This document shows positions 3,163 to 42,116 of a stretch of DNA of 64,000 bases, one piece after another. Made by a program: the position numbers and the translations under genes. The stretch covers positions 78,237 to 142,236 of the forward strand of contig CAKPMY010000002.1 in assembly GCA_934168245.1 (NCBI GenBank). Reading direction: 5' to 3'. Numbering within the stretch: the first letter of the stretch is position 1; each line of letters starts with the position of its first letter. The notes beneath the pieces were generated by a model. It made no database searches. It saw only the letters and a program-made list of their open reading frames with translations, and had not been told where the DNA came from. The DNA is from an uncultured Bacilli bacterium. Its GTDB lineage: Bacteria; Bacillota_I; Bacilli_A; RF39; UBA660.

Positions 3163-3651
3163 TTAACGTTTTACTGCGACCTTCATTGGTTTTTTCTTTG
3201 CTTCTAAATCACGATCATATATACTATGTAATGCTTTAAAACACTCATCGGCTAATTCTACTCTATCAGCATATACAACTAATACTGATCTAGTAACTTT
3301 ATTTGATGCATATGTTCTAAAATCTCCAGCACCATATCTAAATCCACCAACATCTACTTTTTTTGGTCTACCATCTCTATCTTGTTCACAAACTGTTCCT
3401 AAGTAACAATCAAATGCTACTATAGAATTTCCTGCTCTTTTTATAATTTGTGCTCCAACGATACTATTATCTTTAAGAATTGCTTCTCCAATACTTATTG
3501 ATGGACATATTCCTGGCTCTTTTTCATATATTGAACGATCCTCTATTCTTCCTCCACCATCTTCATATATTGGTGTAACAATGCAATGTTCATTGCTTGT
3601 TCCTACAATAGTATAATATCTACTATCTAAACTATTATTATAAAAACTCAT
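3163..3651 (-). CDS. Conserved hypothetical protein (162 aa, Gly-rich; function not recognised)
   Basis: Intact ORF with a good coding look (IVGTSNEHCIVTPIYEDGGGRIEDRS...). No signal peptide or TM segment. I could not assign a family with confidence. Confidence 0.4.
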   Translation of the reverse strand: MSFYNNSLDSRYYTIVGTSNEHCIVTPIYEDGGGRIEDRSIYEKEPGICPSISIGEAILKDNSIVGAQIIKRAGNSIVAFDCYLGTVCEQDRDGRPKKVDVGGFRYGAGDFRTYASNKVTRSVLVVYADRVELADECFKALHSIYDRDLEAKKKPMKVAVKR

Positions 3652-3758
3652 CTAAATACCCCCTAAACGTTTCACTATTATATCACACTTCATTCGAAAA
3701 AGCAAAAAAAGTTGCTACAGCCGCAACTTTTCCCATAATTTTATAATAAAACTTAAAT

Positions 3759-4475
3759 TTATGCTTCAAAAATTCTCTTATCTTTATCAACATAATCTAC
3801 AACTGCATCTATTCCTAAGGATTTAAGTATTTCTACTAATTCTTTTTGTAATGCAATCACTTCTTCTTTATTAACATCACTAAATCCATCTATTGGTACA
3901 AATATATGACTAGTCTCTTCAGTAACTTTACTTTTCTCTCCTTGTCTCCATGTCCATCTTCTAGTTTTAACTTCATCACCTGAAACATATACTATTTCGC
4001 CAACTTCTGGATGTTCAACTTCTTCACTTCCAAAAGGAACAAATGTATCAGATTCTACTGCACCTCTTATTTCTAAATTCCCCTTAAAGTTATCAACATC
4101 ATGTACACCTACAGGTAAAATATATTTAATTGATAAAGCATTACATATATCTACAATAGGATTAATATGAGGTATTTCTCCTCCTTTAGAAATTCTAGTC
4201 ATTAATGCTTCTATTGAACACATAAACTTATTCGGATTAATTCCCAAATTTTTAAATGCTTCACGATAAGGAATGATTAATTGATTTTCTTTTACTCGCC
4301 CTTCACCAAGTCTTTCTCTAGCACTTTTAATAGATTCTTCTAACATTTTATCTGTAAAATCTAATTTAGTTTTATTATCAAAATTATTAAAATAAACTAT
4401 CCCAAAATATGCATTTGGAACCTTCTCAAAAAATTCTTCTGAAACTATAAATTTCATTTTAATCATCTCCCACAC
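3759..4475 (-). CDS. B3/B4 tRNA-binding domain protein (PheT-related)
   Basis: 238 aa. The central segment LIIPYREAFKNLGINPNKFMCSIEALMTRISKGGEIPHINPIVDICNALSIKYILPVGVHD resembles the B3/4 domain of the Phe-tRNA synthetase beta subunit. Confidence 0.5.
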   Translation of the reverse strand: MWEMIKMKFIVSEEFFEKVPNAYFGIVYFNNFDNKTKLDFTDKMLEESIKSARERLGEGRVKENQLIIPYREAFKNLGINPNKFMCSIEALMTRISKGGEIPHINPIVDICNALSIKYILPVGVHDVDNFKGNLEIRGAVESDTFVPFGSEEVEHPEVGEIVYVSGDEVKTRRWTWRQGEKSKVTEETSHIFVPIDGFSDVNKEEVIALQKELVEILKSLGIDAVVDYVDKDKRIFEA

Positions 4476-4506
4476 TAATTATAATGCAAAATAAAAAGAA
4501 AATCTA

Positions 4507-5994
4507 CTAATTAAGATTCTCTTTATTTTTCTCTTTCATAACTATCGTACTACCAATCGCAATTACAAGTATTATTCCAAGTACAATATAAGCCGCTGAC
4601 ACTGTATCTGGATTAACTATTCTATTATATATTGCACTAACAGTAACTTTACCCTCTGGCATTATAAAAGTTCCATCACTATTTACTTCAATCTCATTAC
4701 CATTCTCATCTTTAACAATAATTCTTTTTAAACTATACCCTTCTTTAACTGTTACGTTTACTTTTACTACTTCTCCTGGATAAGCATCAAATTTAACACT
4801 AATCGTTCCTTCTTCAGTAGCCTCTTTTATTACCGGATAATTTAGATACATGTATTTAGCAAGCATTAAAGGCTCGCAAGATATTTGTGTCTCAATCTCT
4901 TTCCTTGGGGCAGCCCAATTATCAACAGTAGAAAATAATAAATAGCCATTTCGTTTTCCATCACTATCATAATTATTTGTAATTTTAAAAGCAATTCTTC
5001 CAGTAACTGGATAATTAACTTCATATACTTTTTTACCATTAAAGTCATACTTAAAAACAGCAGTCTTATCATTAATAATAGCTGTAATTATATAGCCATC
5101 ATACCCATTTGGTGTATAATCACTTATCACATCATAATATACAGAATTAATACTAGCATCTTCATATTGAGCACTAAATACTACATTACCATCTAAGTCT
5201 AGTTTTACGATAGACCCTAATGAAGCACCGTGATTATTTTTTTCACCAACCACTACAATTCCATCTATTTTACCATTTTTATCATAACTGAACTTAAAGT
5301 TCAAAATACTAAAGTCAATATTCTTCGTCCAAATAACATTACTAGCAGAACCATCAAATTTAATAACATTAGCACCACCACTATTAAAGACAGCAGAAAC
5401 TTGATTATTTTCTATATATTTCAATCCATCTGTTTTTATATAATCTTTTACATCTTTTTCCCAAACTACATTTCCCTTTAAATCAAACTTTGTCATAACC
5501 CAAGGAGAATTAATACTTAAATCGGAAGATGTAGTTAAAAATACTATCAAGTATCCATCATGTGTTCCAGTATTATCATAACTATTATATTTTAAATGAT
5601 AAGTATCAGATCCATTTCCACCATATTGTTTCTTAAAAATTGCTGTTCCAGAAGCATCATAAACAGTAACTAAAAGATCTGAAGTACCATTGACAGTATA
5701 TCCTTGGTTATTCGTAGCGGTTAATTGTTCAACAGTAATATTAGAATAATTATCTTTAATATTATAAACAATCTTATTATCAAGACTATGTTTTAATATA
5801 CCACCAGAATATGGAAATAAAAATCCATCGATTATTCCTTTATTATTATAACTAGGAAAAACACGCACATCATTAAAACATCCTTCTACTTTCTCATTAT
5901 ACGTAAGAGTTAAATTCAAAGCCTCAACTCCACTAGGAAAAAATAAAAATCCCATTAGGAATAACAAAATAAAAATGCTTTTTCTTATCTTCAT
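4507..5994 (-). CDS. Surface repeat protein, paralog A (signal peptide, beta-propeller-like NYDxxGxxDGY repeats, Ig-like domain, C-terminal TM anchor)
   Basis: N-terminal signal peptide MKIRKSIFILLFLMGFLFFPSGVEA. Repeated DGY/DxxGN motifs. The C-terminus VKFDAYPGEVVKVNVTVKEGYSLKRIIVKDENGNEIEV...SAAYIVLGIILVIAIGSTIVMKEKNKE is near-identical to the C-termini of the two paralogs upstream. Confidence 0.6.
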   Translation of the reverse strand: MKIRKSIFILLFLMGFLFFPSGVEALNLTLTYNEKVEGCFNDVRVFPSYNNKGIIDGFLFPYSGGILKHSLDNKIVYNIKDNYSNITVEQLTATNNQGYTVNGTSDLLVTVYDASGTAIFKKQYGGNGSDTYHLKYNSYDNTGTHDGYLIVFLTTSSDLSINSPWVMTKFDLKGNVVWEKDVKDYIKTDGLKYIENNQVSAVFNSGGANVIKFDGSASNVIWTKNIDFSILNFKFSYDKNGKIDGIVVVGEKNNHGASLGSIVKLDLDGNVVFSAQYEDASINSVYYDVISDYTPNGYDGYIITAIINDKTAVFKYDFNGKKVYEVNYPVTGRIAFKITNNYDSDGKRNGYLLFSTVDNWAAPRKEIETQISCEPLMLAKYMYLNYPVIKEATEEGTISVKFDAYPGEVVKVNVTVKEGYSLKRIIVKDENGNEIEVNSDGTFIMPEGKVTVSAIYNRIVNPDTVSAAYIVLGIILVIAIGSTIVMKEKNKENLN

Positions 5995-6077
5995 AACTAC
6001 ACCTCTCCTATCTTATAAAAAGATTATACCAAAATAATAGAAACTATCAAACCCTAAGTCTGATAATTTCTATTTAT

Positions 6078-7550
6078 TTATACTTTTTCTTTATTTTTCT
6101 CTCTCATAACTATCGTACTACCTATCGCAATTACAAGTATTATTCCAAGTACAATATAACAAGCAGAAACTGTATCTGGATTAACTATTCTATTATATAT
6201 TGCACTAACAGTAACTTTTCCCTCTGGCATTATAAATGTCCCATCACTATTTACTTCTATCTCATTACCATCCTCATCTTTAACGATAATTCTTTTTAAA
6301 CTATATCCTTCTTTAACTGTTACATTTATTTTAACTACCTCTCCTGGATAAGCATCAGATTTAACAGTAATAGTACCACCAACAACTTCTTTCTTAGCTA
6401 CCGGAAACATATCATATGTGTATTTTAAAACTCTATAATAGCAATGATCTTTTCTAGAGTATATTTCAGTATTACTATCATCTTTTCTACTCTCAATACC
6501 TCGTTCATATAACAAATAGCCATTTTTTCTTCCACTACTATCATAATTATTAAAAATTGAAAAATTAATATTACTACTATCAGAAATAGTTTTTTCATAA
6601 ACTTTAATTCCTTCATAATTATACTTTAAAAGAAGCGTTTTATTATCAGATGTTACAGCAATAACTACATAGCCATCATATGTACCATCAGGAAGATAAC
6701 TAGCCTTTCCATCAGTAAAATAAGAATAAACATCACTTTTGTCATAAACAGTTGAAAAAATAATATTACCATCTAAATCATACTTTATTATTATACCAGT
6801 ATCATTATTTGCTCCAACAAGTATAACTCCATCAAAATTACCATTTTTATCATAACTATAGTCAAAAGAATAAAGGTCAATATTTGTATTTTTTTCCCAA
6901 CTTTGACTAATAATTCCCTTTTTTTCAAGAGATGAATTTTTAATATAAAAAATAGAATCAACTTTATTATCAACTACATAATATAAATCTCCACTATAAT
7001 AATCATTGATGTTTTTTTTCCAAACCACACCACCATTCAAATCAAACTTTACCATAACATAACCAGGAATAACATCCAAGTCAGAAGAATCAGTTCTAAA
7101 TACTACAATATTGCCATCATTAATTCCAAAATCATTATACGACTTAAAAGAAGAAATATATTCATCTTCACCATTACCACCATACTGCTTAATAAAAAGT
7201 TTGTTACCGTCTTTATCATAACCAGTTATCAACAAATCAGAAGAACCAGCAATATTATATTCACTATCAACATTTGAATATATATCTTTAACCCAAATTC
7301 TACCCAAATTAGAATCATAGTATTTTTTATAAATAAGTTTATTGTCTAAACCATACTTTATGTTCGTATCACCATCAAGAAATAAAAAGCCATCTATAGA
7401 ACCAGTATTATCATAACTAGGTAGCATCGTAAAACCACATCCATTAGATGCACTATAAGAAAGAGTTAACTCTAGTGCATTCGTCTTACATGGAAACAAA
7501 ATAGTAATGACTAAAATAATTAAGATAAAAATACATCTTTTTAACTTCAT
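6078..7550 (-). CDS. Surface repeat protein, paralog B
   Basis: Same architecture as 4507..5994. The 3' ~300 nt are about 90% identical at DNA level. It has its own TTGATA-16-TATAAT promoter and a GGAGAGG RBS. Confidence 0.6.
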   Translation of the reverse strand: MKLKRCIFILIILVITILFPCKTNALELTLSYSASNGCGFTMLPSYDNTGSIDGFLFLDGDTNIKYGLDNKLIYKKYYDSNLGRIWVKDIYSNVDSEYNIAGSSDLLITGYDKDGNKLFIKQYGGNGEDEYISSFKSYNDFGINDGNIVVFRTDSSDLDVIPGYVMVKFDLNGGVVWKKNINDYYSGDLYYVVDNKVDSIFYIKNSSLEKKGIISQSWEKNTNIDLYSFDYSYDKNGNFDGVILVGANNDTGIIIKYDLDGNIIFSTVYDKSDVYSYFTDGKASYLPDGTYDGYVVIAVTSDNKTLLLKYNYEGIKVYEKTISDSSNINFSIFNNYDSSGRKNGYLLYERGIESRKDDSNTEIYSRKDHCYYRVLKYTYDMFPVAKKEVVGGTITVKSDAYPGEVVKINVTVKEGYSLKRIIVKDEDGNEIEVNSDGTFIMPEGKVTVSAIYNRIVNPDTVSACYIVLGIILVIAIGSTIVMREKNKEKV

Positions 7551-7637
7551 AACTACACCTCTCCTATCTTATAAAAATATTATATCAAAATAAAAAGAAT
7601 TATCAAATACCAACATTCAATAATTCTTCTTAATAAT

Positions 7638-9146
7638 CTACATATCTTTATTATCTTTTTGTTTAACAACAATCAAACTACCAACTGCAATCAATAGTAC
7701 TACTCCAAGCACCATATAAGCAGCAGATACTGTATCCGGATTAGTTATTCTTTTATATATCGCACTAACAGTAACTTTTCCTTCTGGCATTACAAAAGTT
7801 CCATCACTATTAACTTCTATTTCTTTACCAGTCTCATCTTTAACGATAATTCTCTTTAAACTATATCCTTCTTTAACTGTTACATTTACTTTAACTACTT
7901 CTCCTGGATAAGCATCAGACTTAACACTAATAATTCCTTCTTCACTATTCTCTTTTACTACGGGATAGTTATCATACGTATACTTTGCAACCATTAAATC
8001 TTCACAAATAGTAATATCATATGTATCTACTGACTCTTGAATCCTACTTGGAATAAAGTCCTGATTTGAATTAAAAAACATTAAATATCCATTTTGTTTT
8101 TTATTGACATCATAGTTGTTAAAAACTTTACCACCAAAAGTACCTTGAGAATAAACAATCTCCCAATTCTTCTTGCCAGTATAATCATATTTTAGAATTA
8201 CAGTTTTTCTTCCTTCAGCATCAGCAGTAACTCCCGTAACTATATATCCATCAAAACTTCCATCTGGCAAATAACTACTTATAACATCATAGTATATAGC
8301 CCAAGTATCAGTTTTATCATAACCACTTCTAAAAATTTCATTACCTTCAAAATCATATTTAATTATTTCTGCAGTGTCGCCATCAGACTTAACAAATCCA
8401 GCAACCACAAATCCGTCTATCTTACCATTCTTATCATAACTATAATTAATATTATTAATAGAAATTCCTGTATTTATATTTAAAACTGTTTCATTCGTAT
8501 TTACGTTAGTAATATATAGTACAGAATCATCAGGATTAGTAACAGAAAAAGCCGTTTTATTTTTTGTAAAAAGAAGAACATTTCTAGTAAACTCATTTAT
8601 ATTTTTTTCCCAACGAACATTACCATTTAAGTCAATCTTTAACATGAAGAAACTTAATGCATCTGTAAATTCTGAAGAATTAGTCAAGAAAAACACTAAA
8701 TATCCATCATGTACACCTTTATTGTTATATGACTTCATACCCATTATGCCATAATCAATACCATCACCGCCATATTGAGTTTTAAAAAGTCCACTGTCAT
8801 CATCATTATAAGCAGTAATTAAAAGATCGGCCTCACCTTCAACCATATATCCATCACTATTAGAAGCCCTAATCGTTGAAACATCAACAGTATATACATC
8901 TTTTTCTTTTCCATCATATACTATCTTATTATTAAGATCCTGTTTAGTAATACCATTACTATCTATATATAATAATCCATCAATTTCCCCATTATTATCA
9001 TAGCTTGGTAATACAGCCAAATCGTCAAAACACTTTTGTAACTTCTCATTATATGTAAGTTTTAAATCTAGTGCCTGAACTCTACTAGGAAAAACCAAAA
9101 CACCTACTAAAGCCAGCACAATAAAAATACTTTTTCTTATCTTCAT
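7638..9146 (-). CDS. Surface repeat protein, paralog C (start moved to the internal Met)
   Basis: The ORF as listed starts at 9275 and would overlap the upstream gene's stop. The Met at 9146 (MKIRKSIFIVLALVG...) matches the N-termini of the paralogs and is preceded by a GGAGAAG RBS. The C-terminus is shared with the paralogs. Confidence 0.6.
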   Translation of the reverse strand: MKIRKSIFIVLALVGVLVFPSRVQALDLKLTYNEKLQKCFDDLAVLPSYDNNGEIDGLLYIDSNGITKQDLNNKIVYDGKEKDVYTVDVSTIRASNSDGYMVEGEADLLITAYNDDDSGLFKTQYGGDGIDYGIMGMKSYNNKGVHDGYLVFFLTNSSEFTDALSFFMLKIDLNGNVRWEKNINEFTRNVLLFTKNKTAFSVTNPDDSVLYITNVNTNETVLNINTGISINNINYSYDKNGKIDGFVVAGFVKSDGDTAEIIKYDFEGNEIFRSGYDKTDTWAIYYDVISSYLPDGSFDGYIVTGVTADAEGRKTVILKYDYTGKKNWEIVYSQGTFGGKVFNNYDVNKKQNGYLMFFNSNQDFIPSRIQESVDTYDITICEDLMVAKYTYDNYPVVKENSEEGIISVKSDAYPGEVVKVNVTVKEGYSLKRIIVKDETGKEIEVNSDGTFVMPEGKVTVSAIYKRITNPDTVSAAYMVLGVVLLIAVGSLIVVKQKDNKDM

Positions 9147-9237
9147 AACCACACTTCTCCTATCTTCTACCATAATTATACCAAAACAAAAAAAATTATC
9201 AAACCCTAAGTCTGATAATTTTCTTTTTCTTATAAAT

Positions 9238-12200
9238 TTACCTATACGCCACAACATGATGTGTCTTTTTATCATTAATTAACTCTACCACATCACTCTT
9301 TTGTACACGACCATCTACCATAGTTTTCCTTTTCTTATCCTTATGAACCTCTATTTCATAAATGGTTTCCTTAAATTTATAAGTAATCTTAAATGTAGTC
9401 CAACAATCTGGAATACTAGGCTCTACTCTTAACGTATTACTCTTCTTCTTCATACCTAAAATATCTCTAATACCTACATTATAGAACCATCCAGAAGAAC
9501 CAGTATACCAAGTCCATCCAGCCTTACCAGCAAAGTTTTCATTAGAAGAGATATCTGCTGCAATTACATAAGGCTCTGCTCCATACTTCATAACCGCCGA
9601 ATTATTCAAAGTCCTATTAATTGGATTTATCATCTGATAATACTTATAAGCCTTATCAGTATATCCCATCTTAATTAAAGCCATAATATACCAACTAACC
9701 GCATGTGTATATTGACCTCCATTTTCTCTAATACCTTTAGGATAATTCATAATATATCCAGGATTATTTAATGACTTACTAAAAGCCGGATTAAGTAACT
9801 TAATAATATCATTATCTCTATCGACTAACTTCTCTTCTACTTCTTCAATTACTTTTAAACTTCTTTCCTCATCCGCAACTCCAGATATAACTGAAAAACT
9901 CTGAGAAATTAAATCAATCTTACATTCACTATTATCTTTACTACCTAACTTATCTCCATTATCAAAATATGCTCTTAAATAATAATCTTTATCCCAACCA
10001 TACTTATTCAAATTACTCTTCAATTCATCATTAAATTTAACATACGAAGAAACATCTAACGCTACATTATTCTCCTCTACCAAAGCAACAAACTTATCAA
10101 TTATATTATACAAGAAGAATCCTAACCAAACACTTTCTCCCTTACCTTTAATACCTACTCTATTCATTCCATCATTCCAGTCACCTCCACCCATTAATGG
10201 TAACTTATGACTACCTAAATTAGACATAGATAATTTTAAAGACTTCAAACAATGATTAAGAATCGTATCACTACTACTAGAATAACTAAAATTCATCGTC
10301 TTCTCATACTCATAAACACTAAGTAAACTACCCGTAACATAAGGAACTTTTTCCCCTAAAATATCCTTATCCCCAGTAACTTCAATATAATTAATAACAG
10401 CATATACTAGCCATAAAAAATCATCCTTATAACGACTTCTAAGTCCAAACTTACTATCTTCATGCCACCAATGTAGAACATCACCTTCTCTAAATTGATG
10501 TGCCGCATTACAAATAATCTGCTCTCTCGTAAACTCCGGTTTTACTAAAACTATATTCATAGCATCCTGTAACTGATCTCTATATCCAAAAGCCCCAGAT
10601 ACTTGATAAAAACCAGCTCTAGCCATAATTCTAGAAGAAATAGTCTGATACAAATACCAATTATTAATCATATAATCAAAACTCTTATCTGGACTTTGAA
10701 CCTTAATAGTACCAAGAGTCTCATTCCAATACTTCTTAACTTTATCAAAAGCCATATCAACAAAATTAAGATCACTATATTTTCTAACTAATCCTTCTCC
10801 TATACATTCACTTCTATCAGCAACCAACATAAATACTATAGTCTTCTCTTCCTTAGCCTTCAAACTAATCTTACTATTAATACTCTTAACTAAGATTCTA
10901 TCACTACACCAAGAACTAATCTTTTCATTACAAGACATATATACACATACATCACTATAATTAATACTATAAGCATTACGTAGTTTTAATAAATTATCTT
11001 CCTCCATATACTCAGATAAAATATGTCTAGCTGTCTTCTCTTCAAAATTACCAAACGTTGGATTAATCCAAAAACAAGTATCAACATCCTGCTTTTTATT
11101 AGTCTTATTACTTAACTTAACCAAATATAATTTTACTGGTTCATTAATACTAACAAACTCTGTAATTTCTTTTCTTAACTCCAAAGATTCACTCTCTAAA
11201 ATACTATATCCCATACCATGAGTACACTTATCAGATACAAATAACTTATCATTAAACTTAAATCCCTCAGACCTGTCATTAACAACTAAATCATTAGTCC
11301 AAGACGTAATCTTAAACTCCGAAGAATTTTCAAAATAAGTAAATCCAGCCCCATTATTAGTAATAACAGTTCCAAACTCACTATTCGCAATAACATTACT
11401 CCAAGGAACAGGTGTCTTATTATTATAAATAACATACTCTTCCCCATTATTTATAAATCCACCAAAGCCATTATCAAACTCATACTCTCCCCGTTTCTTT
11501 ATCGCAACATTCTCTTCATACTTTTTCTCTTCATAATTACTAATCTTATTATTCTTCTGTAACTCACTAACTGCAACACTCAAACTAATATGATCTCTTA
11601 CGATAAATCTAAGTCTAGGTACAACTCCAAATAAATTCATCTCTTCTCTAGATAAACCACTTCCATCTATTACTTTAATAATACCTGGAGTATGATAAAA
11701 ACTATTAACTGAATATATTCTATATATCTCATCATCAATCTCTTTATTAATAACATCTCTATACTCATCTTCATTATTAATAATAACTATATCTACAAAA
11801 ATAGAATTATTCTTATAATACTCAAATGCTTTAAGTATACTAAATACAAAAGATAAATCACTAATATCATTAATATCCACTAAAATAATTGGTCTATCTC
11901 CACTAATTCCAAACTTCCACAACCCAGTCTGTGATAAACTATTTCTTCTTAATAAATCCATTCTCTCTTCATTAACTGATATTTTAGTAGTCTGATATAA
12001 ATAATTAAGCATTATATTATAAAGCCTTAACTCATCCCCCATAAGATCCATACTCTTATTATTTACAACACTTGCTAAAGAAGCTACTCTAAATATTTTA
12101 TTAATATCTCTTTTATTATTATAAGCATTAATAATTTCATCTATTTGTTCAGTACTTCTTCCAAAACCAACAACCACATAAACCGTTACTTCTCCATTAG

Positions 12201-15200
12201 GAACTATCTCTATCTTATTTCTAATACTACTAATTGGATCCAAGTTATCCCCCACATAGTTACTAAGTTTTGTAGAAAGACTAACTGGATTACTAGTTGT
12301 ATAACCCCTACCAATAAATCTACTTCTCTCAGTCTCATAACTATATTTATCAACAGGATTATCAATAATCAATCTACTAACCATATAATTATTAATACTA
12401 GAGTCTCCTCTACTTTTTCTCTTCATTATAAGAGCATTATTCTTATTATCCCATTCACTAGAAATAAACATATTATTAAATACCCTATGTGAAACATCAT
12501 CCATATTCTCGGATAATATAACCTCAGTATAAGTAGTTAGTTCTAAATTCTTATTAACATTACTATTATTTCTAAAAGAAATCTTTCTAATCTCAGCATT
12601 ATGATATGGACTAACTACAATCTCTGTAGTAGTCGTAATTAACCCATCAGTTCTTAAATACTTAATCCTATCAGATGCAAAAACAACTTCATAATTATCA
12701 CTATTCTTATTAATTGGAGCATAAGTATTAGACCAAACATAATTAGTATCTACATCTTTTATATACATAAATATTCCATAGTCTTGTTCTGTAACCTTAC
12801 GATATCTATTTAATTGTAAAGTTCTATATCTAGAAAAACTATTACCTCGATCATTCATAAGTAAAGCATATTTCTTATTCGATAAAACAGACACTTCTGG
12901 CATATAAGAAATATAATTAAATGTTCTAATATCATTCTCTATTCTTTCTTTTCTATAATCATACTTTTTATACTTAGCCATCTTCATATCTATATCAGTC
13001 TTTATCTGTACTTTTTCTTTAAGTAATATATCAAAAGTTCTAACTAATACATTTTCCTGGAAATAGTTCTTTACTGCTCCTAGTTTCAAATAATTAACTA
13101 TTCCTGCTAAAATCATTCCCTGATGATGTGCAAAGTAAGCTGACACAACACCAGTATTATCATAGTCATATGATTCATATAACCCATATTTACCAAACAT
13201 TTCTAAGTCTCTAAATTTCTCTATATTAGACATTACTTCTCTTGGAAATAACTCTAAAGCCATTATTGATGCATATGGAGAAAGAACTATTCTATTATCT
13301 TTATCTTCTTTTGCTTTTAAATACGGAGTTGAAAAAGCCCTATATTTATAATTTAGTGAATTATCTAACTCATTATAAGCAGCCTCACTAATACCCCATG
13401 GCAACTTCTTATTTATTTTTTCTATATAATCCTTCTGACAAAAATAAGCAAACTGATATGACTCATCCATCAATGTATTAGGATAATTCTTTAAAAATAA
13501 TAGCGGCATAAAATACTCAAAAGAAGTACCAGACCAAGAAATAAGTCCTTTACGTCCTTTATATGTAGTTAAAGATTTATCAAGAGAAAACCAATGTTTA
13601 ACAGGAACATCTCCCTTACAAATTGCTAAATAACTAGTAAGTCTAGCCTCACTCGCAAACTTATTATAGTTATATATTGAAAGTCTTCCCTCACTATCAT
13701 CATATCCAATACTAAATACATTCTTCTTTGTATATAACTTTGAAAAGTCAGCTTTTTTAATTAAACTATCACATCTTTTAACTAAATCTATAAACCCATG
13801 ACTATTTAAAAACTCTCTACAAACAACCAAACTAGAAACAAAATTACCTGAATCTACTAAAGATACAAATCTTGGGCTAAGAACTTCCATAGTCAAAATA
13901 TTATACCAGTTATATAAATGTCCATTCCACTTTTCTAACTTCTCTACTGTATCTAAAATATTAGAAATTAATGTCCTAGCCTCATCTTTTGTAATAAACT
14001 CCATCTCACAAGATGAAACTATACTAACTAATGAATACCCTATCGCTGTAGGACTAGTTCTCTTATCTAACTTTTCTTCTCTATTTTCCTGATAATTATC
14101 TGGTATTAAATAATTATATTTACTACATAAATTATCTGAAAAATACATCCAAGTATCATAAGCCAACCTAGTAAGATTCTCTTCTACCTCACCACTAATA
14201 CTATTCTTAGGTTTAATATCTAAACTAACAAAGTATAAAACAAATGGTGCCGTAATAAACATACCCGCTACTACATAAGAAATATATGACTTAAATATAA
14301 CTCCTAAAATAATAAAAATAATACCAAAAATATAATTAACTATAAAACTCTTCAAATACCCAACTAAACTCTTATTTAACTTCTTACTTGCCTCTTCTGC
14401 TGTAGTCCAATTAAGTAAATTCTTATGTGATACAAAAAGTCTATATAAAGTTCTAAAAAAAGCATCCATATAAACCCCAGTATAAAAAGGTATATTAATA
14501 AAAGTAATATAAGCCCTATATAATAAACTACGTCCCCCTACTAATAAATTCTTATAGTACACTGTCTTATTTTTATTTTTAAATTTAACTTTACTATACA
14601 AGAAAAATATAATTGAAATAGCAATCTCTAAAACTACAAATAAAATCCAAAGTACTGACTTAGTCCCATTAAATGACATTGCCAAAAGTAATATAAGTAA
14701 TAAACTAGGCATTAAAAACATTCTAAGAATATTATCTAATATTTTTAATTTTCCAAGTAAATTTATTGGATTTTTTACTTTAAGATTTTTTTTATTTTTA
14801 ACAGTATTTAAAAGCCACCCAATAATTTGTGTATCTCCTCTAGCCCATCTATGTTGTCTAGATACATCTGTTAAAAAGTCAGATGGCGCATCATCTATCA
14901 ATTCTACATCTGAAACATATCCAACTCTTAAATAATTACCTTCTAATAAGTCATGTGACAAAATCAAATTATCTGGAAAGGTATCTCCAAGTATTTTATC
15001 AAAACACTCTAAATCATATATTCCCTTACCTATAAAATTCCCTTCTCCAAAGAAATCTTGATATGTATTAAAAAGTGTTGCTGAATAAGTATCAAATCCA
15101 CCTACTCCAGCAAATATCTGACTATATAAACTCTTATTAGTAGCCTCTATTGAAGAACTAACTCTTGGTTGCATAATCCCATATCCAGAAATTACCTTAG

Positions 15201-16878
15201 TCTTCTCTTTATTTAAAACTGGTCTATTTAAAGGATGTGCCATTGCTCCTATTAAGTTTAAAGCCGTACTTAAAACAAGTCTAGTATCAGTATCTAATGT
15301 AATAACATATTTAATACCTAACTCTTTTCCCTGTAATGTATTAATAAAGAAATTCTTTTTACTAAGATTATCATTCATCTTACCAAGTAATACTTTATTA
15401 AACTGAACTAGTGCCCCTCTTTTTCTCTCATATCCTAAGTAACACTCTTCACTCTCATTCCATACTCTTCTTCTATAAATAAAATGAAATAATTCCTTAC
15501 CATATTTTTTATTTAAAGAAGAAACTATTTTTTCTCCTGCTTCAACTAATTCTTGATCATACTCCTCGTCTTTCTTAGAAGAGGCTTTAACATCCCCTAA
15601 TAAAGTAAAATATAAATTATTAGACTTATTAATTAAATAAAATGTCTCTAATACATCAAACATCTCTTTAATTTTCTCTGTACTACTAATAATAGTTGGA
15701 ATTACTACCATCGTTGTAGCACTCTTATCTAATCCATTAGAAAAATTAATTTTAGGCATAACCGTAATTGGTAAAATCTTACTAAAAATAACATCTACAA
15801 TTTTTATCAATACCTGACTAACTGGAATTAATAGAATTAAAAATCCTAAAGCCCTAAGTCCAATAAAATATTTAGACAAGAAAAAACTAATAATAAAAGT
15901 TCCTAAACACATAAAAACTAAATAAAGAATTGTTCTTAGTTTATAATTTTTATTTTTAAATAAATAAAATCCAATATGCTTCTCTTCTTTTAAACTAATA
16001 CTATAAAGTTTACCAAGTAATTCTAATTCACTACATCTTTTCCCTCTAGCAAGTCTAACTATCTGTTCCCTATACATCATCTTTGTATCAACAGTCATAC
16101 TCTTATATACTTTATCCATAAGTAATAGTTTTTCTGTTGCTGAAATATTTTTAAATAGTTCTTCTTCATTAAGCTCAAATAATAGTTTTAAATCTCCAAA
16201 TATATTAGAAATCAAAATATTATTATCAATTCTCTCTTGAAAAAAATCATTAATAATTTCTTTTAAACTAACATTCTTTGCTTCTAATAATTCATTTATC
16301 TCTTTAAATATATAATTACTTCTATTACCAAGTTTTTTTATCTGACTATTAACTTCATAAATATAATACTGATTCTCAGTAATATTAAACTTTTCATCTA
16401 TAAAATCATTTAATGTTACTTCATTCTTATCACAACTATTAATAATTTTACTAACTTTATTTTTTATTAATAATTTATCTTTCTCATCTTCACTAAGTAA
16501 ATACAACTTCTCTGTATAAATAAAGATCAAAAGATATTTAATTGCTAAAATCTCTCTATATGAAAAATCATAACTCTCATTTCTTTGATATTTTTTTAAT
16601 TCGGAAACTAATGTTTTAAAAGGAATATTATAATTATTCGCAACTGCTATTTGTCTAAGACAATAGTATAAACTTTTGGTATTTTTTATTAATTTACGTA
16701 TTTCTCTTTTGTTATGAACAATATTTGTTTTATGCTCTACTAACAAATAAAAATTATCAATTATCCATTCATTGTTAATTCCTACGTATGTTGCTTGTTT
16801 TGTTTTTTCTATTAAATAATTATAATATTTATTTATTTTTTTGAAGTTTGTAAAGAAATTAAAATACGTATCGTTCAT
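9238..16878 (-). CDS. Cyclic beta-1,2-glucan synthase-like giant protein (2546 aa): N-terminal cytoplasmic region, TM segments, GT84-like glycosyltransferase, C-terminal GH94 glycoside-phosphorylase-like domain
   Basis: The processive GT motif QHRWARGD and the DTDTRL (DxD) region lie in the middle. The C-terminal region carries the GH94 signature FGYRDQLQD plus HWWHEDSKFGLRSRYKDD. Several TM helices cover roughly aa 300-900 (one example starts LGTFIISFFLSKYFIG...). The architecture is that of Cgs/NdvB/ChvB. Confidence 0.75.
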   Translation of the reverse strand: MNDTYFNFFTNFKKINKYYNYLIEKTKQATYVGINNEWIIDNFYLLVEHKTNIVHNKREIRKLIKNTKSLYYCLRQIAVANNYNIPFKTLVSELKKYQRNESYDFSYREILAIKYLLIFIYTEKLYLLSEDEKDKLLIKNKVSKIINSCDKNEVTLNDFIDEKFNITENQYYIYEVNSQIKKLGNRSNYIFKEINELLEAKNVSLKEIINDFFQERIDNNILISNIFGDLKLLFELNEEELFKNISATEKLLLMDKVYKSMTVDTKMMYREQIVRLARGKRCSELELLGKLYSISLKEEKHIGFYLFKNKNYKLRTILYLVFMCLGTFIISFFLSKYFIGLRALGFLILLIPVSQVLIKIVDVIFSKILPITVMPKINFSNGLDKSATTMVVIPTIISSTEKIKEMFDVLETFYLINKSNNLYFTLLGDVKASSKKDEEYDQELVEAGEKIVSSLNKKYGKELFHFIYRRRVWNESEECYLGYERKRGALVQFNKVLLGKMNDNLSKKNFFINTLQGKELGIKYVITLDTDTRLVLSTALNLIGAMAHPLNRPVLNKEKTKVISGYGIMQPRVSSSIEATNKSLYSQIFAGVGGFDTYSATLFNTYQDFFGEGNFIGKGIYDLECFDKILGDTFPDNLILSHDLLEGNYLRVGYVSDVELIDDAPSDFLTDVSRQHRWARGDTQIIGWLLNTVKNKKNLKVKNPINLLGKLKILDNILRMFLMPSLLLILLLAMSFNGTKSVLWILFVVLEIAISIIFFLYSKVKFKNKNKTVYYKNLLVGGRSLLYRAYITFINIPFYTGVYMDAFFRTLYRLFVSHKNLLNWTTAEEASKKLNKSLVGYLKSFIVNYIFGIIFIILGVIFKSYISYVVAGMFITAPFVLYFVSLDIKPKNSISGEVEENLTRLAYDTWMYFSDNLCSKYNYLIPDNYQENREEKLDKRTSPTAIGYSLVSIVSSCEMEFITKDEARTLISNILDTVEKLEKWNGHLYNWYNILTMEVLSPRFVSLVDSGNFVSSLVVCREFLNSHGFIDLVKRCDSLIKKADFSKLYTKKNVFSIGYDDSEGRLSIYNYNKFASEARLTSYLAICKGDVPVKHWFSLDKSLTTYKGRKGLISWSGTSFEYFMPLLFLKNYPNTLMDESYQFAYFCQKDYIEKINKKLPWGISEAAYNELDNSLNYKYRAFSTPYLKAKEDKDNRIVLSPYASIMALELFPREVMSNIEKFRDLEMFGKYGLYESYDYDNTGVVSAYFAHHQGMILAGIVNYLKLGAVKNYFQENVLVRTFDILLKEKVQIKTDIDMKMAKYKKYDYRKERIENDIRTFNYISYMPEVSVLSNKKYALLMNDRGNSFSRYRTLQLNRYRKVTEQDYGIFMYIKDVDTNYVWSNTYAPINKNSDNYEVVFASDRIKYLRTDGLITTTTEIVVSPYHNAEIRKISFRNNSNVNKNLELTTYTEVILSENMDDVSHRVFNNMFISSEWDNKNNALIMKRKSRGDSSINNYMVSRLIIDNPVDKYSYETERSRFIGRGYTTSNPVSLSTKLSNYVGDNLDPISSIRNKIEIVPNGEVTVYVVVGFGRSTEQIDEIINAYNNKRDINKIFRVASLASVVNNKSMDLMGDELRLYNIMLNYLYQTTKISVNEERMDLLRRNSLSQTGLWKFGISGDRPIILVDINDISDLSFVFSILKAFEYYKNNSIFVDIVIINNEDEYRDVINKEIDDEIYRIYSVNSFYHTPGIIKVIDGSGLSREEMNLFGVVPRLRFIVRDHISLSVAVSELQKNNKISNYEEKKYEENVAIKKRGEYEFDNGFGGFINNGEEYVIYNNKTPVPWSNVIANSEFGTVITNNGAGFTYFENSSEFKITSWTNDLVVNDRSEGFKFNDKLFVSDKCTHGMGYSILESESLELRKEITEFVSINEPVKLYLVKLSNKTNKKQDVDTCFWINPTFGNFEEKTARHILSEYMEEDNLLKLRNAYSINYSDVCVYMSCNEKISSWCSDRILVKSINSKISLKAKEEKTIVFMLVADRSECIGEGLVRKYSDLNFVDMAFDKVKKYWNETLGTIKVQSPDKSFDYMINNWYLYQTISSRIMARAGFYQVSGAFGYRDQLQDAMNIVLVKPEFTREQIICNAAHQFREGDVLHWWHEDSKFGLRSRYKDDFLWLVYAVINYIEVTGDKDILGEKVPYVTGSLLSVYEYEKTMNFSYSSSSDTILNHCLKSLKLSMSNLGSHKLPLMGGGDWNDGMNRVGIKGKGESVWLGFFLYNIIDKFVALVEENNVALDVSSYVKFNDELKSNLNKYGWDKDYYLRAYFDNGDKLGSKDNSECKIDLISQSFSVISGVADEERSLKVIEEVEEKLVDRDNDIIKLLNPAFSKSLNNPGYIMNYPKGIRENGGQYTHAVSWYIMALIKMGYTDKAYKYYQMINPINRTLNNSAVMKYGAEPYVIAADISSNENFAGKAGWTWYTGSSGWFYNVGIRDILGMKKKSNTLRVEPSIPDCWTTFKITYKFKETIYEIEVHKDKKRKTMVDGRVQKSDVVELINDKKTHHVVAYR

Positions 16879-16952
16879 GACATCAACTCTCCTATTTAAA
16901 TTATATCATAAATGATTGTAAATAGAATATCAAAATAAGTCGAAAAAGTCGT

Positions 16953-16979
16953 AAAAAAAAACCTTGTCTAAACAAGGTT
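16953..16979 (-). terminator. Rho-independent terminator after tRNA-Ser
   Basis: Hairpin AACCTTG-TCTAAA-CAAGGTT at 16960-16979. On the minus strand it is followed by T8 (plus-strand A-run 16953-16960). Confidence 0.6.
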
Positions 16980-16989
16980 ACTTTTCTTA

Positions 16990-17080
16990 TGGCGGAGTAG
17001 GAGAGATTTGAACTCTCGCGCCAGTTGCCCGACCTACACCCTTAGCAGGGGCGCCTCTTCAGCCTCTTGAGTACTACTCC
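16990..17080 (-). tRNA. tRNA-Ser (GCT)
   Basis: Reverse complement GGAGTAGTACTCAAGAGGCTGAAGAGGCGCCCCTGCTAAGGG...GGTTCAAATCTCTCCTACTCCGCCA. Anticodon loop CTGCTAA. Long variable arm. 91 nt with encoded CCA. Confidence 0.85.
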
Positions 17081-17107
17081 ATTTCCTCTTGTGCGTCCGC
17101 ATATATA

Positions 17108-17136
17108 ATATTACACGAATTACCCTTACTTGTCAA
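17108..17136 (-). promoter_or_regulatory. Sigma-A promoter for tRNA-Ser (TTGACA-17-TAATAT)
   Basis: The minus strand reads TTGACA agtaagggtaattcgtg TAATAT, about 20 nt upstream of the mature tRNA-Ser 5' end. Confidence 0.55.
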
Positions 17137-17137
17137 T

Positions 17138-17165
17138 AACAAAATAAAAGACCTTCGAAAAGGTC
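17138..17165 (-). terminator. Rho-independent terminator after the tRNA Ile-Asn-Glu operon
   Basis: Hairpin GACCTT-CGAA-AAGGTC at 17150-17165, followed on the minus strand by TTTTATTTT. Confidence 0.55.
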
Positions 17166-17201
17166 AAATAAAAATCCAACATGCTGGAATTATATTCAAT
17201 A

Positions 17202-17278
17202 TGGTGACGAGTACGGAATTCGAATCCGTGAATGCTGCCGTGAAAGGGCAGTGTGTTAAGCCACTTCACCAACTCGCC
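17202..17278 (-). tRNA. tRNA-Glu (TTC)
   Basis: Reverse complement GGCGAGTTGGTGAAGTGGCTTAACACACTGCCCTTTCACGGCAG...TTCGAATTCCGTACTCGTCACCA. Anticodon loop CTTTCAC. Confidence 0.8.
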
Positions 17279-17281
17279 ATA

Positions 17282-17358
17282 TGGCGCCCCAACTAGGACT
17301 TGAACCTAGGACCCCTTGATTAACAGTCAAGTGCTCTAACCGACTGAGCTATTGAGGC
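17282..17358 (-). tRNA. tRNA-Asn (GTT)
   Basis: Reverse complement GCCTCAATAGCTCAGTCGGTTAGAGCACTTGACTGTTAATCAAGGGGTCCTAGGTTCAAGTCCTAGTTGGGGCGCCA. Anticodon loop CTGTTAA. Confidence 0.85.
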
Positions 17359-17365
17359 AAATTAA

Positions 17366-17442
<77 letters not shown>

Positions 17443-17571
17443 ATTAATTAACTGACTTCTTAAGTTTACAATACTTTTTTAAATTTTGCAAGAGAAAATT
17501 CACATTTTTAAATATATTTCTCAACTGCAATAATAGAATACTATAGAAAAAGTAAGAAAGTCAAGTATTTT

Positions 17572-39948: not shown

Positions 39949-40554
39949 CTACTTAACCTTATAAAATATTGAAATCACTTTAGCAAACTCATAAAGTATA
40001 ATATTACTTTTATTTATCGCAAAACCTTTACCTAAAGCCTTACCACCTATCGTAAGTGCCGCCACTATTGCTGCTATAGATAATCCCGTAAACAAGATAC
40101 TGAAATTAAACTTTTCCGCAACAACTGCCGCTATTGTCGTAGCCGCTGTACCAGAAATAATTCCACATACATCCCCGACTACATCACAACAAAAGTTAGA
40201 TACCTTAGAAGCATTTTTCTTAAACTTAACTGCCACATCTGCACCTTTAACTTTTCTAGAATTCATTGAATGAAAAACTTTTTCATCACTACTAGTAACC
40301 GCTACACCTACTATATCAAATAAAATACCAATGCCCACAAAGAGTAACGTTACAAGTATTCCACCAACTATTGATAATTTAGGTAAAGTAACCTGTGATA
40401 CATAAGAAAGTCCAAAGGATAATGTAAAGGCAATTATAATAATCTTAACAATCCATCTCATATCGGCTTTCTTTTTATTAATTCTTTCTTTTCTCTTAGT
40501 TTCAATAACTAATCCTTGAAATTCATCTTTTTCTAATTTCTTCTTACTATTCAT
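39949..40554 (-). CDS. Small four-TM membrane protein with DxxxD motif. Candidate OapA (OLE-associated protein A)
   Basis: 201 aa. Basic N-terminus, then four hydrophobic helices. CCDVVGDVCG contains DVVGD. RBS AGGAAAGGGT. It lies immediately downstream of the 600-nt ncRNA and is co-oriented with it. Confidence 0.5.
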   Translation of the reverse strand: MNSKKKLEKDEFQGLVIETKRKERINKKKADMRWIVKIIIIAFTLSFGLSYVSQVTLPKLSIVGGILVTLLFVGIGILFDIVGVAVTSSDEKVFHSMNSRKVKGADVAVKFKKNASKVSNFCCDVVGDVCGIISGTAATTIAAVVAEKFNFSILFTGLSIAAIVAALTIGGKALGKGFAINKSNIILYEFAKVISIFYKVK

Positions 40555-40599
40555 ATACCCTTTCCTATAGAAAAAATAGTATAAAATACTATTTTCAAT

Positions 40600-41196
40600 T
40601 AAAAAAAACTAATGGCTCTAAACATAGTAAACTTTGAATCTTAGGTCAAGTAGGATTTCCCTTATCTCTACGTATCCGTTACCAGATACATGGTTCCCCT
40701 TTAAAGAGATAAGTATGATGTTACCATTCATACGACTTGATTACCACTTAGTATCCACTGCAATCCTATGTAAAGCGCACTCTAGGAGATTTCCTCACCA
40801 ACACTTTATTATTTATTCTTTTTTGCAAGAGCAATTTCATAAAGCAATATTTATTAAAGTTGGCCTGTTCTAATAAACAAGTTCTTTAATCCCAATACTC
40901 TCACTCAAGACAAGCTACACTGTACATAACTTTCGCCACAATACAGGTTCCTAGCCTACCTCGTAACAAGTCCATCAGTATAAAACGTATAGGCTTATCA
41001 CAAATAATAGGTCTCCACGGATAATGGGTCGTTTGTCGTATGCCATTACGAGCGCCCATTCTCCTCATCTTCAGCATCCACCCTACACTGGGCGTATAAA
41101 GCAAACACCAAAGGTTTCACAGATATGCTCGATAACGGTTGTTTAATCCCGTCTTCCTAATAAAGTAACTGACTAGAATAATGTGCCATCAATTAC
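40600..41196 (-). ncRNA. Large structured ncRNA candidate (about 600 nt), consistent with OLE RNA
   Basis: ORF-free. GC is locally raised. The minus-strand transcript is purine-rich. A near-consensus promoter lies just upstream. Length and the downstream oapA-like gene fit the OLE locus. I found no tRNA-like end (so not tmRNA), no GAGGAAAGTCC (so not RNase P) and no group II domain V. Confidence 0.5.
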
Positions 41197-41202
41197 ATCC
41201 CT

Positions 41203-41231
41203 AGTATATCATATGTCTTAGGAACTGTCAA
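41203..41231 (-). promoter_or_regulatory. Sigma-A promoter (TTGACA-17-TATACT) driving the ncRNA
   Basis: The minus strand reads TTGACA gttcctaagacatatga TATACT. A second overlapping TTGACA (GTCAACTTGACAG) is present. Confidence 0.6.
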
Positions 41232-41429: not shown

Positions 41430-42116
41430 TTAACTATTTCTAATCTTATTAACAAAATAATTAATTTTACCAGCCCAAGTATTACCTTCAGCATATCTAG
41501 GAGCAATCTTTTCAACTGTATCTAATCCTACACTATAATAATTCTTATATAAATTATTAATAAGACCCATAATACCATCTTCTAAAGTATCAAACTTCTT
41601 ATATTTACCCCCATTACAACCAGGACTTCCCTTCTGACCACTAACATTAAAACAACTTCTTGCTAGATTAGAACACTTAGAGCCACAGCCAGTCTCATGT
41701 AAGATAATAGCCGTCGCAACATACGGATCAACTCCCTTTTCAAGGCAATTAACCGCAATAAAATACCCTTTTCCAGCCATAATATCCGTACCTAAATTCT
41801 TATCAAGTTTAAGTGTAAGCTCTTCTATTGTAAGCCCATCAAAAACCTCAATCCTAGGTGGAATTAATACTGATGCTGGAGCAGTCTCCATATCAATAGC
41901 CGTAATAGAAGCATCATCAACTCTATACTCCTCCATATTCTTACAAAGAGCACTATCAGATGCCATAATATTATTCGTATTTATTTCATTAAATGAAAGA
42001 TAATCATTCTTTTCTAAATTAGCCTTTTCTTGTAACTTTATTCCTAAAGAAACCATTAAAACTGAAATTATAATTAAAAGACAACTAACAATCTTAGTCT
42101 TTTTCATTAAATTCAC
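41430..42116 (-). CDS. Secreted peptidoglycan hydrolase, glucosaminidase (FlgJ/LytD-like) domain
   Basis: N-terminal TM/signal. PYVATAIILHETGCGSKCSNLARSCFNVSG...FDTLEDGIMGLINNLYKNYYSVG resembles the mannosyl-glycoprotein endo-beta-N-acetylglucosaminidase domain. Confidence 0.55.
   Translation of the reverse strand: MNLMKKTKIVSCLLIIISVLMVSLGIKLQEKANLEKNDYLSFNEINTNNIMASDSALCKNMEEYRVDDASITAIDMETAPASVLIPPRIEVFDGLTIEELTLKLDKNLGTDIMAGKGYFIAVNCLEKGVDPYVATAIILHETGCGSKCSNLARSCFNVSGQKGSPGCNGGKYKKFDTLEDGIMGLINNLYKNYYSVGLDTVEKIAPRYAEGNTWAGKINYFVNKIRNS

Follow-up and report, generated by a model that had tools for sequence, protein, structure and literature searches.

Three neighbouring genes on the minus strand of a 64,000-nucleotide stretch of DNA from an uncultured Bacilli bacterium of the RF39 lineage (contig CAKPMY010000002.1; the whole stretch is called the window below, and positions count from its first letter) raise the question of how paralogs with strongly diverged central parts can end in almost the same 300 nucleotides (nt). 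A preliminary description of this locus had proposed a recently expanded family of surface-repeat proteins with a gene-conversion signature at the 3' ends and private promoters, some of them overlapped by a palindrome to which a regulator might bind. We arrive at a different account, to which we assign a probability of roughly 0.7. In this account the genes, designated C, B, and A in their order on the minus strand, form an old tandem array of three surface-propeller paralogs, which would have their own terminator-promoter junctions, a constant anchor, and propeller cassettes that recombine.

The gene coordinates given earlier were borne out. Gene C (7638-9146, minus strand, 502 amino acids (aa)), the first gene of the array, stands directly after a large synthase gene (9238-16878, minus strand). 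Genes B (6078-7550, minus strand, 490 aa) and A (4507-5994, minus strand, 495 aa) follow with the same architecture, and a B3_4-domain gene closes the order synthase-C-B-A-B3_4. Each protein consists, in this sequence, of a Sec signal peptide, a beta-propeller of about seven blades, a linker, a Flg_new_2 domain, an NPxT motif, a transmembrane (TM) helix, and a Lys-rich tail. In the C protein, the propeller covers aa ~27-361 and Flg_new_2 aa 394-467, followed by NPDTVSA and the TM helix at aa ~470-500. The signal peptides and central DGY-type repeats of the preliminary description were found in all three proteins, each of which carries five motifs of the type S-Y-D-x-x-G-x-x-D-G-Y. An Ig-like domain and a TM segment had also been proposed for the protein ends, in agreement with our finding that Flg_new_2 (PF18998), a divergent InlB B-repeat domain, scored 36.8, 30.0, and 28.8 bits in A, B, and C, respectively (aa ~384-467; gathering threshold 23.6 bits). 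Besides this domain, Pfam recognised nothing in the three proteins: DUF5122, SBBP, and PQQ_2 gave no match at E <= 0.1, and a leucine-rich repeat (LRR) or internalin domain was not found. NCBIfam recognised no family in them either.

The central part was predicted with an AlphaFold2 (AF2) model of C built on a 79-sequence alignment, with a predicted local distance difference test score (pLDDT) of 82.6 and a predicted template modelling score (pTM) of 0.77. Behind a signal-peptide helix, the model places 26 beta-strands at aa 29-360 (pLDDT mostly 80-95) in about seven four-stranded blades, each with S-Y-D-x-x-G-x-x-D-G-Y and D-L-x-G-N-x-x-W hairpins. Beyond the propeller, it shows a disordered linker (aa 362-379), a small beta domain (aa 384-466), and a helix (aa 470-500). 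Foldseek matched the model to the propellers of CylK, BamB, WD40 proteins, and methanol dehydrogenase (probability 1.00, E 1e-7 to 1e-5), so that the beta-propeller for which fold recognition had been recommended is supported by both AF2 and Foldseek. A profile search by sequence against solved structures returned no match below E 0.16.

The propeller family is small, with 31 clusters (50% identity) at E <= 1e-10 among 1.84 billion representatives, and among the genome contigs the C protein matched one distant fragment (L001, 33% identity). Remote relatives retrieved with phmmer combine DUF5122, SBBP, or PQQ_2 repeats with a surface anchor of the SLH or Por_Secre_tail type and are, because of these anchors, surface proteins as well. 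No functional name was found for any relative in the sources searched; ten relatives sourced from NCBI are entered as 'MAG: hypothetical protein'. A search for other passenger domains with the C-terminal 119 aa alone returned nine short fragments and was uninformative. We conclude that A, B, and C are members of an unnamed family of surface-anchored beta-propeller proteins, which upholds the earlier view of a tandem family of surface-anchored repeat proteins.

To describe the divergence of the paralogs, pairwise nucleotide identity was profiled in 60-nt windows. Identity among A, B, and C was 30-78% (in summary 40-70%) over the first ~1200 nt vs 85-97% over the last ~300 nt, which confirms the near-identical ends and diverged middles reported before. 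A repeat finder returned a single 300-nt family (D1) of 85-90% identity with one copy in A (4523-4822), one in B (6091-6390), and one in C (7651-7950), all on the minus strand. This 3' module extends from the DAYPGE codons to the tail and encodes Flg_new_2, NPxT, and the TM segment; the A and B modules are 92.4% identical over 290 nt. The propeller parts share 39-46% aa identity at a synonymous divergence (dS) of 0.8-0.96 and a nonsynonymous divergence (dN) of ~0.5, and their third-position distance of 0.42-0.48 is at saturation. The corresponding values for the anchor parts are 77-93% aa identity, dS 0.30-0.53, and dN 0.03-0.14.

Separate trees with bootstrap were computed for the N-part and the C-part of the genes (window copies W_A, W_B, and W_C; L2_1, the gene of the related genome L002). 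In the N-part tree, W_C and L2_1 are joined with 100% support, 'type 1' genes from other genomes cluster with C (bootstrap 100%), and A and B form separate deep lineages. The saturated synonymous sites of the propellers and the presence of C orthologs elsewhere show that the array did not expand recently, contrary to what had been proposed. Judged by these distances and trees, the expansion is ancient, and the paralog lineages are older than the split from the other genomes.

The same anchor sequence was found in genomes whose propellers share 24-53% identity with those of A, B, and C. Across genomes, 70-86% of its amino acids are conserved despite substantial synonymous divergence (proportion of synonymous differences (pS) 0.25-0.5), and C has the same helix sequence as L3_1, a family gene of another genome. 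The propeller evolves differently from the genes that flank the array: its dN is 0.07-0.11 at a dS of 0.19-0.26, compared to 0.017-0.020 at 0.16-0.19 in the flanking genes, corresponding to amino-acid change that is 4-6 times faster at equal synonymous distance.

Could purifying selection alone explain the similarity of the 3' ends, with neither gene conversion nor unequal crossover? The conservation of the anchor amino-acid sequence across genomes fits this explanation, as do many paralog pairs of other genomes with a nearly saturated pS in the anchor (0.38-0.52). However, the trees of the two gene parts contradict each other at 98-100% bootstrap, also when restricted to third positions. In the C-part tree, W_B is joined to L2_1 (100%), W_A, W_B, and L2_1 form a clade (100%; 93% on third positions), and both L009 copies, L9_1 and L9_2, pair at 100% (98% on third positions). 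The latter two clades are missing from the N-part tree; support for W_C is weak. Moreover, identity jumps abruptly between 100% and 60% within genes: L3_1 and L8_1 match at 100% over ~1000 nt and at 59-91% afterwards, and at its 3' end L3_1 shares 96-97% identity with L8_2. Together with a chimeric gene that comes with the matching junction and a sharply bounded allele replacement, both described below, these observations contradict selection on its own, which is very improbable. As read from the alignments, the 3' similarity arises mostly because the anchor is under purifying selection, to which genuine recombination adds. The proposed gene-conversion signature therefore stands in part. Recombination on the 3' module, i.e. 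concerted evolution or gene conversion between paralogs, is clear for A and B and in other genomes and weak for C, and the main cause of the similarity is selection on the anchor.

Recombination also seems to have altered the number of genes. L002 has two copies: the ortholog of A is retained, and B is not present as a separate gene but as a C::B fusion, which is C-like up to the DAYPGE codons, B-like beyond them, and followed by a junction of the B-A type. The crossover point lies at the 5' edge of the B module, and a chimera of this kind would be expected if the 3' modules of C and B had crossed over unequally, with loss of B. Other genomes carry arrays at two other loci. One of them is conserved among related genomes and holds 2, 2, 3, and 2 copies on large, well-covered contigs in the order two-component system, CinA, Asp/Glu racemase, array, acyltransferases. 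Strain variation at the locus of the window itself is evident from L093 (OIYO01000642.1, reverse strand ~6300-7088), which is 96.3% identical to the window from the synthase through the junction to ~190 nt into C. Past this breakpoint its propeller, at the first array position, shares 45% aa identity with that of C, and none of the sampled copies is closer than 49% over the aligned part; the contig terminates inside the gene. Copy number, mosaics, and the L093 allele thus differ between strains, in line with the variability suggested earlier. Phase variation by spacer length was rejected, as the promoter spacer is 16 nt in all junctions examined. In the surroundings of the array, we noticed no gene for a recombinase; the ORFs (open reading frames) farther out in the window are partly annotated.

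Tandem copies with near-identical ends might also result from mis-assembly of repeats. Contigs from other samples end inside B or C (L013-L016 and L093), L002 has N-runs within the repeat, and metagenome assemblies break or collapse at the array because the 3' module is conserved. In the window, though, the copies are separated by at least 22 mismatches per 290 nt, so that short reads can resolve them. The order synthase-C-B-A-B3_4 is 100% identical in independent assemblies of other samples (human-gut metagenomes, including Hadza), of which L010 (94.7 kb, 39.7x coverage) and L012 (9.1 kb) each span C, B, and A. Gene B is present on 11 contigs of 50-200 kb. Because of this identity across independent assemblies, which here took the place of the long reads proposed for the same check, mis-assembly of the array is very unlikely, with a chance close to negligible.

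What, then, drives expression of the individual copies? The private TTGATA-16-TATAAT promoters of the preliminary description were confirmed. Those of C (9175-9202), B (7579-7606), and A (6023-6050), all on the minus strand and with a TG extension, are the three best promoter-like sites in the 14 kb from 3600 to 17500, with 11/12 consensus matches. The sigma-A/sigma-70-type hexamers and the 16-nt spacer are conserved in the junction alignment, suggesting that A, B, and C are each a transcription unit of their own with a strong promoter. Public gene calls and the mechanical ORF list have a 545-aa gene C that starts at 9275; this start overlaps the end of the synthase ORF and spans both the hairpin described below and the promoter. 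Because a ribosome-binding site and the signal peptide are located at ATG 9146, as the preliminary description correctly had it, we take this codon to be the true start.

All three promoters overlap an 18-19 bp hairpin, which starts 2-10 nt behind the stop codon of the gene before it and has a T-run after it. After the synthase stop, it occupies 9183-9231 (core stem 9188-9226), holds the -35 of C in its 3' arm, and has a z-score of -3.2 against shuffles. The hairpin after the C stop (7591-7632; 19 bp with 1 G-C and 4 G-U pairs; z -2.8) overlaps the -35 of B, and that after the B stop (6036-6074; 18 bp; z -5.1), with a T-rich tract next to it, overlaps the -35 of A. All are on the minus strand. 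The palindrome noted before, TTATCAGACTTAGGGTTTGATAA at 9196-9218 (0 copies expected by chance), is part of the first of these structures, and a near-copy upstream of A, …GTTTGATAG, is part of the stem at 6036-6074. Its overlap with the -35, which lies in the 3' arm of the hairpin, was confirmed. Its restriction to two of the three upstream regions was not, as the hairpin at 7591-7632 is diverged in sequence but pairs fully. The five positions at which it differs all preserve pairing (C-G to U-A, C-G to U-G, A-U to G-U, G-U to A-U, and one extra G-U), and the G/A 'imperfection' of the palindrome is a G-U pair on the sense strand. Across nine junctions from five genomes, 92.2% of the cells are paired vs 48-60% in slid controls. 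Four pairs have changed on both sides, and the covariation score exceeds all 500 shuffles. No Rfam family was found in the junctions.

Comparison with more distant arrays points in the same direction. In L009, L017, and L018, a hairpin of unrelated sequence (GACTTTAG…CTAAGGTC; 3 G-C pairs in 9 bp) occupies the same position, followed by T6 and TGnTATAAT; here the -35 (TTGACT) lies across loop and 3' arm, with a spacer of 16 nt as in the window. L003, L006, and L008 have a promoter but no hairpin upstream of their first copy, which there follows a gene that lacks a terminator. Because transcripts from the next promoter exclude the hairpin, it can act solely on the RNA of the upstream gene. Judging from pairing and position, it is most likely an intrinsic terminator, weak and rich in AU, that is merged with the promoter of the following gene, and the best reading of the junction is that it would make each gene an insulated unit.

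Another model builds on the preliminary description: a recent local expansion with 3' gene conversion would have left each copy under separate control of a dimeric regulator with the palindrome as its operator. The A and B modules, which cluster within the genome even at third positions, are in keeping with it. So are the outer half-sites AATTATCA and TGATAATT, which are invariant in the nine junctions and overlap the -35; this invariance is also explained by the -35 hexamer and its complement. Against the model stand the age of the paralog lineages with their saturated propellers and the maintenance of the anchor across genomes by selection. Furthermore, full pairing is achieved on the sense strand only, via G-U pairs, and with compensatory changes; a hairpin of another sequence can take the same place; and the hairpin is missing where the preceding gene is unterminated. 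The window holds no copy of the palindrome beyond those upstream of C and A, and the search for a regulator that binds it revealed no adjacent regulator gene in the window. In a metagenome scan with the degenerate palindrome, two of the matches listed (at least 120 loci) were relevant, L059 and L093; the others among the matches listed were chance matches in AT-rich DNA from unrelated environments and were uninformative on an operator. We consider this model unlikely. As a sense-strand RNA hairpin with a T-tract after a stop codon, the palindrome is more likely a terminator than an operator. A Fur-box-like operator was considered and rejected, the half-sites being in the wrong order and 11 nt apart.

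The C-terminal end of the proteins bears on how they are held at the cell surface. N469, P470, T472, and S474 are invariant directly before the predicted helix (aa 470-500) in the 79-sequence alignment, in which the fifth residue of the NPxT motif is V, T, M, A, or S; a K/R-rich tail forms the extreme C-terminus. Such a combination of NPxT, hydrophobic helix, and Lys-rich tail could be a class-B-like sortase signal, in which case the proteins would be cleaved and linked to peptidoglycan. Such a signal would differ from a plain membrane anchor in the anchoring step alone, and we regard it as possible but doubtful. Of 248 family and related sequences, 172 contain N-P-x-T, among them all full-length close members, and most sequences that lack it are fragments or distant relatives. 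It is kept even in members with a diverged helix (NPQTSAL, NPQTAAV, NPETAAI). Class B sortases recognise NPQTN or NPKTG (PMC11987632). In NCBIfam, the tail comes closest to the C-terminus of IsdC (a weak match, E 0.006), which is the archetypal substrate of class-B sortases, and to LPXTG_anchor (TIGR01167). A wall to which the proteins could be linked is expected: the window encodes a D-Ala-D-Ala ligase (Ddl) and a Mur ligase and has a G+C content of 29%, and from these features and an OLE RNA (described below) the organism is a walled (peptidoglycan-containing), low-GC member of the Bacillota. On the other hand, the LPXTG_anchor score of 14.8 bits is below the cut-off of 15.9. The fifth residue of the motif is generally V, T, M, or A and not G, N, or S. 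The invariant helix residues Y477, L480, G481, L484, I492, and V493 suit a functional membrane helix rather than a disposable signal, and motif scans revealed no sortase-like or TLxTC-type ORF in the window or the related loci examined. Somewhat less probable still, as an extension of this idea, is that NPxT, helix, and Lys-rich tail represent an undescribed class-B-like or other dedicated sorting signal that defines strain-hypervariable propeller adhesins, with the junctions as insulated cassettes. If true, the terminator-promoter junctions would let propeller genes be swapped, lost, and gained with the expression of the neighbours undisturbed.

Returning to the old, recombining array with a constant anchor, we propose the following model. 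The hairpin and T-run right after a stop codon would end the upstream transcript, while the 3' arm of the hairpin would supply the -35 (TTGATA) of the next promoter and the T-run its 16-nt spacer, with the TG-extended TATAAT following. In the mature protein, the propeller would be the exposed, fast-evolving, and presumably binding part, and Flg_new_2 the stalk. Purifying selection holds the 3' anchor module nearly constant. Together, the anchor module, the conserved junction, and the signal-peptide start place homologous sequence on either side of each variable propeller cassette. Comparison with related genomes shows that homologous recombination across such flanks homogenises 3' ends (A and B here, both copies in L009), deletes or adds copies (two vs three; the C::B chimera), and replaces whole propeller alleles between strains. 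In sum, strains would differ in the surface propellers that they display on an unchanging anchor. Judging by the architecture, the propellers may act in adhesion or bind a host target, a glycan, or a phage-exposed target.

Several observations weigh against this account, which is built on sequence and models. The fold matches are to generic propellers, with TM-scores of 0.2-0.34, which are low because the full-length model was used as query. The stems are very AU-rich (1-3 G-C pairs) and not of the G+C-rich terminator type, and only one of the three hairpins, that of the B-A junction, passes a standard terminator scan; termination may thus be weak. L002 is a 4.7x-coverage scaffold with N-runs, so its two-copy state may be an assembly collapse. 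The pS of the 3' module, 0.25-0.38, is reduced yet not small, and conversion among the window copies is accordingly not recent. For C, conversion is barely separable from constraint, with a third-position distance of 0.23-0.28 to A and B and of 0.25 to L3_1.

The genes around the array were also inspected. The synthase (2546 aa) has GH94 and Glycoamylase domains (Pfam) and lies outside the propeller family. It looks like a cyclic beta-1,2-glucan synthase, here in a gut bacterium that is Gram-positive; no Pfam family covers the N-terminal ~1000 aa, which contain a very weak MdoH-like stretch in NCBIfam. The position of the array downstream of the glucan synthase, as described earlier, holds for the window and for its close relatives L002, L010, and L093 only, and is not conserved in the family. 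A functional coupling to the synthase was rejected, the adjacency being confined to close relatives. At the downstream edge of the array (4476-4506, minus strand), a junction remnant with T-tract and TATAAT and without hairpin precedes the B3_4-domain gene, and there is no terminator between A and this gene. Its listed start is GTG 4475; ATG 4457 (MKFIV…, GGGAG upstream) fits the 232-aa public call.

Among the other loci, L009 (13271-15982) and L018 (11142-11606) have a gene with a prepilin-type N_methyl domain after the array (903 aa with Big_13, and 154 aa, respectively). These genes are preceded by the same hairpin-promoter junction, and a T2SSE ATPase gene lies ~8 kb upstream of the arrays. 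A third locus type is found in L017 (563-6444), where a pair of family genes follows faint matches to Peptidase_S26 (signal peptidase), DUF5305, and CBM_2. These neighbours could be a dedicated secretion or assembly set. The edge of this locus carries an IS605 OrfB/TnpB gene. On the minus strand of the window, two hybrid histidine kinase/response-regulator genes (1127 and 624 aa) stand side by side at 53136-58390, next to a phosphoketolase gene (58513-60861); the same neighbourhood of XFP and histidine kinase (HK) genes occurs beside the L017 array. The window also contains a full-length OLE (ornate large extremophilic) RNA (40596-41205, minus strand; 375 bits, E 1e-106), a notable occurrence in a human-gut bacterium, which is flanked by same-strand ORFs at 39949-40554 and 41430-42116.

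Overall, the locus is a strain-variable surface locus in a never-cultured human-gut bacterium, of a family that occurs in Hadza and other gut metagenomes. A constant anchor with exchangeable exposed domains is typical of surface proteins under host, phage, or competitor pressure, which makes A, B, and C reasonable candidates for adhesins or phage receptors; their genes are possible strain markers. The general principle of constant anchor, variable exposed domain, and recombination is already known, and the protein family is unnamed. What makes the locus interesting is chiefly the NPxT motif as a possible sorting signal, along with the terminator-promoter cassettes.

Known systems share different parts of this design. 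Intrinsic terminators that overlap the next promoter occur in compact operon junctions, where stop codon, hairpin, and U-tract are followed by a -35 and -10 within or beside them. Compared to such general overlaps, the arrangement here is exact and repeated, with the -35 in the 3' arm and the U-tract as spacer, and it recurs throughout the family, realised with two unrelated hairpin sequences. Class B sortase substrates such as IsdC share N-P-x-T right before a hydrophobic segment and a basic tail; unlike IsdC, the propeller proteins have sub-threshold scores, a different fifth residue, no NEAT domain, and no iron-uptake context. Surface propellers of the DUF5122 (delta-60), SBBP, and PQQ/BamB-like types have the same fold, but A, B, and C reach none of their Pfam models.

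Closer parallels are offered by tandem arrays in pathogens. The emm-like genes of Streptococcus pyogenes (mrp-emm-enn) comprise two or three tandem paralogs with a conserved signal peptide and 3' wall-anchor region and a hypervariable exposed N-terminal part, and they recombine between copies and strains. Their products are coiled-coil proteins with LPXTG tails under control of Mga, whereas the array described here has a propeller passenger and a constitutive-looking consensus promoter per gene, with no regulator identified. In Listeria monocytogenes, the clusters inlG-inlC2-inlD-inlE and inlG-inlH-inlE are likewise tandem paralogous genes for surface proteins, which combine a variable N-terminal binding domain with a conserved C-terminal B-repeat and sorting region; here a variable, presumably binding propeller and a conserved B-repeat with anchor region take these places. 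The stalk of A, B, and C, a divergent InlB B-repeat, is shared with the internalins. However, A, B, and C have no LRR and are therefore not internalins, their passenger is a beta-propeller without a Pfam family, their tail has NPxT instead of LPXTG, and their propeller family is confined to uncultured gut bacteria. In Listeria, inlH is a recombinant of 5'-inlC2 and 3'-inlD (PMC3977354), and the C::B chimera of L002 would represent the same type of event.

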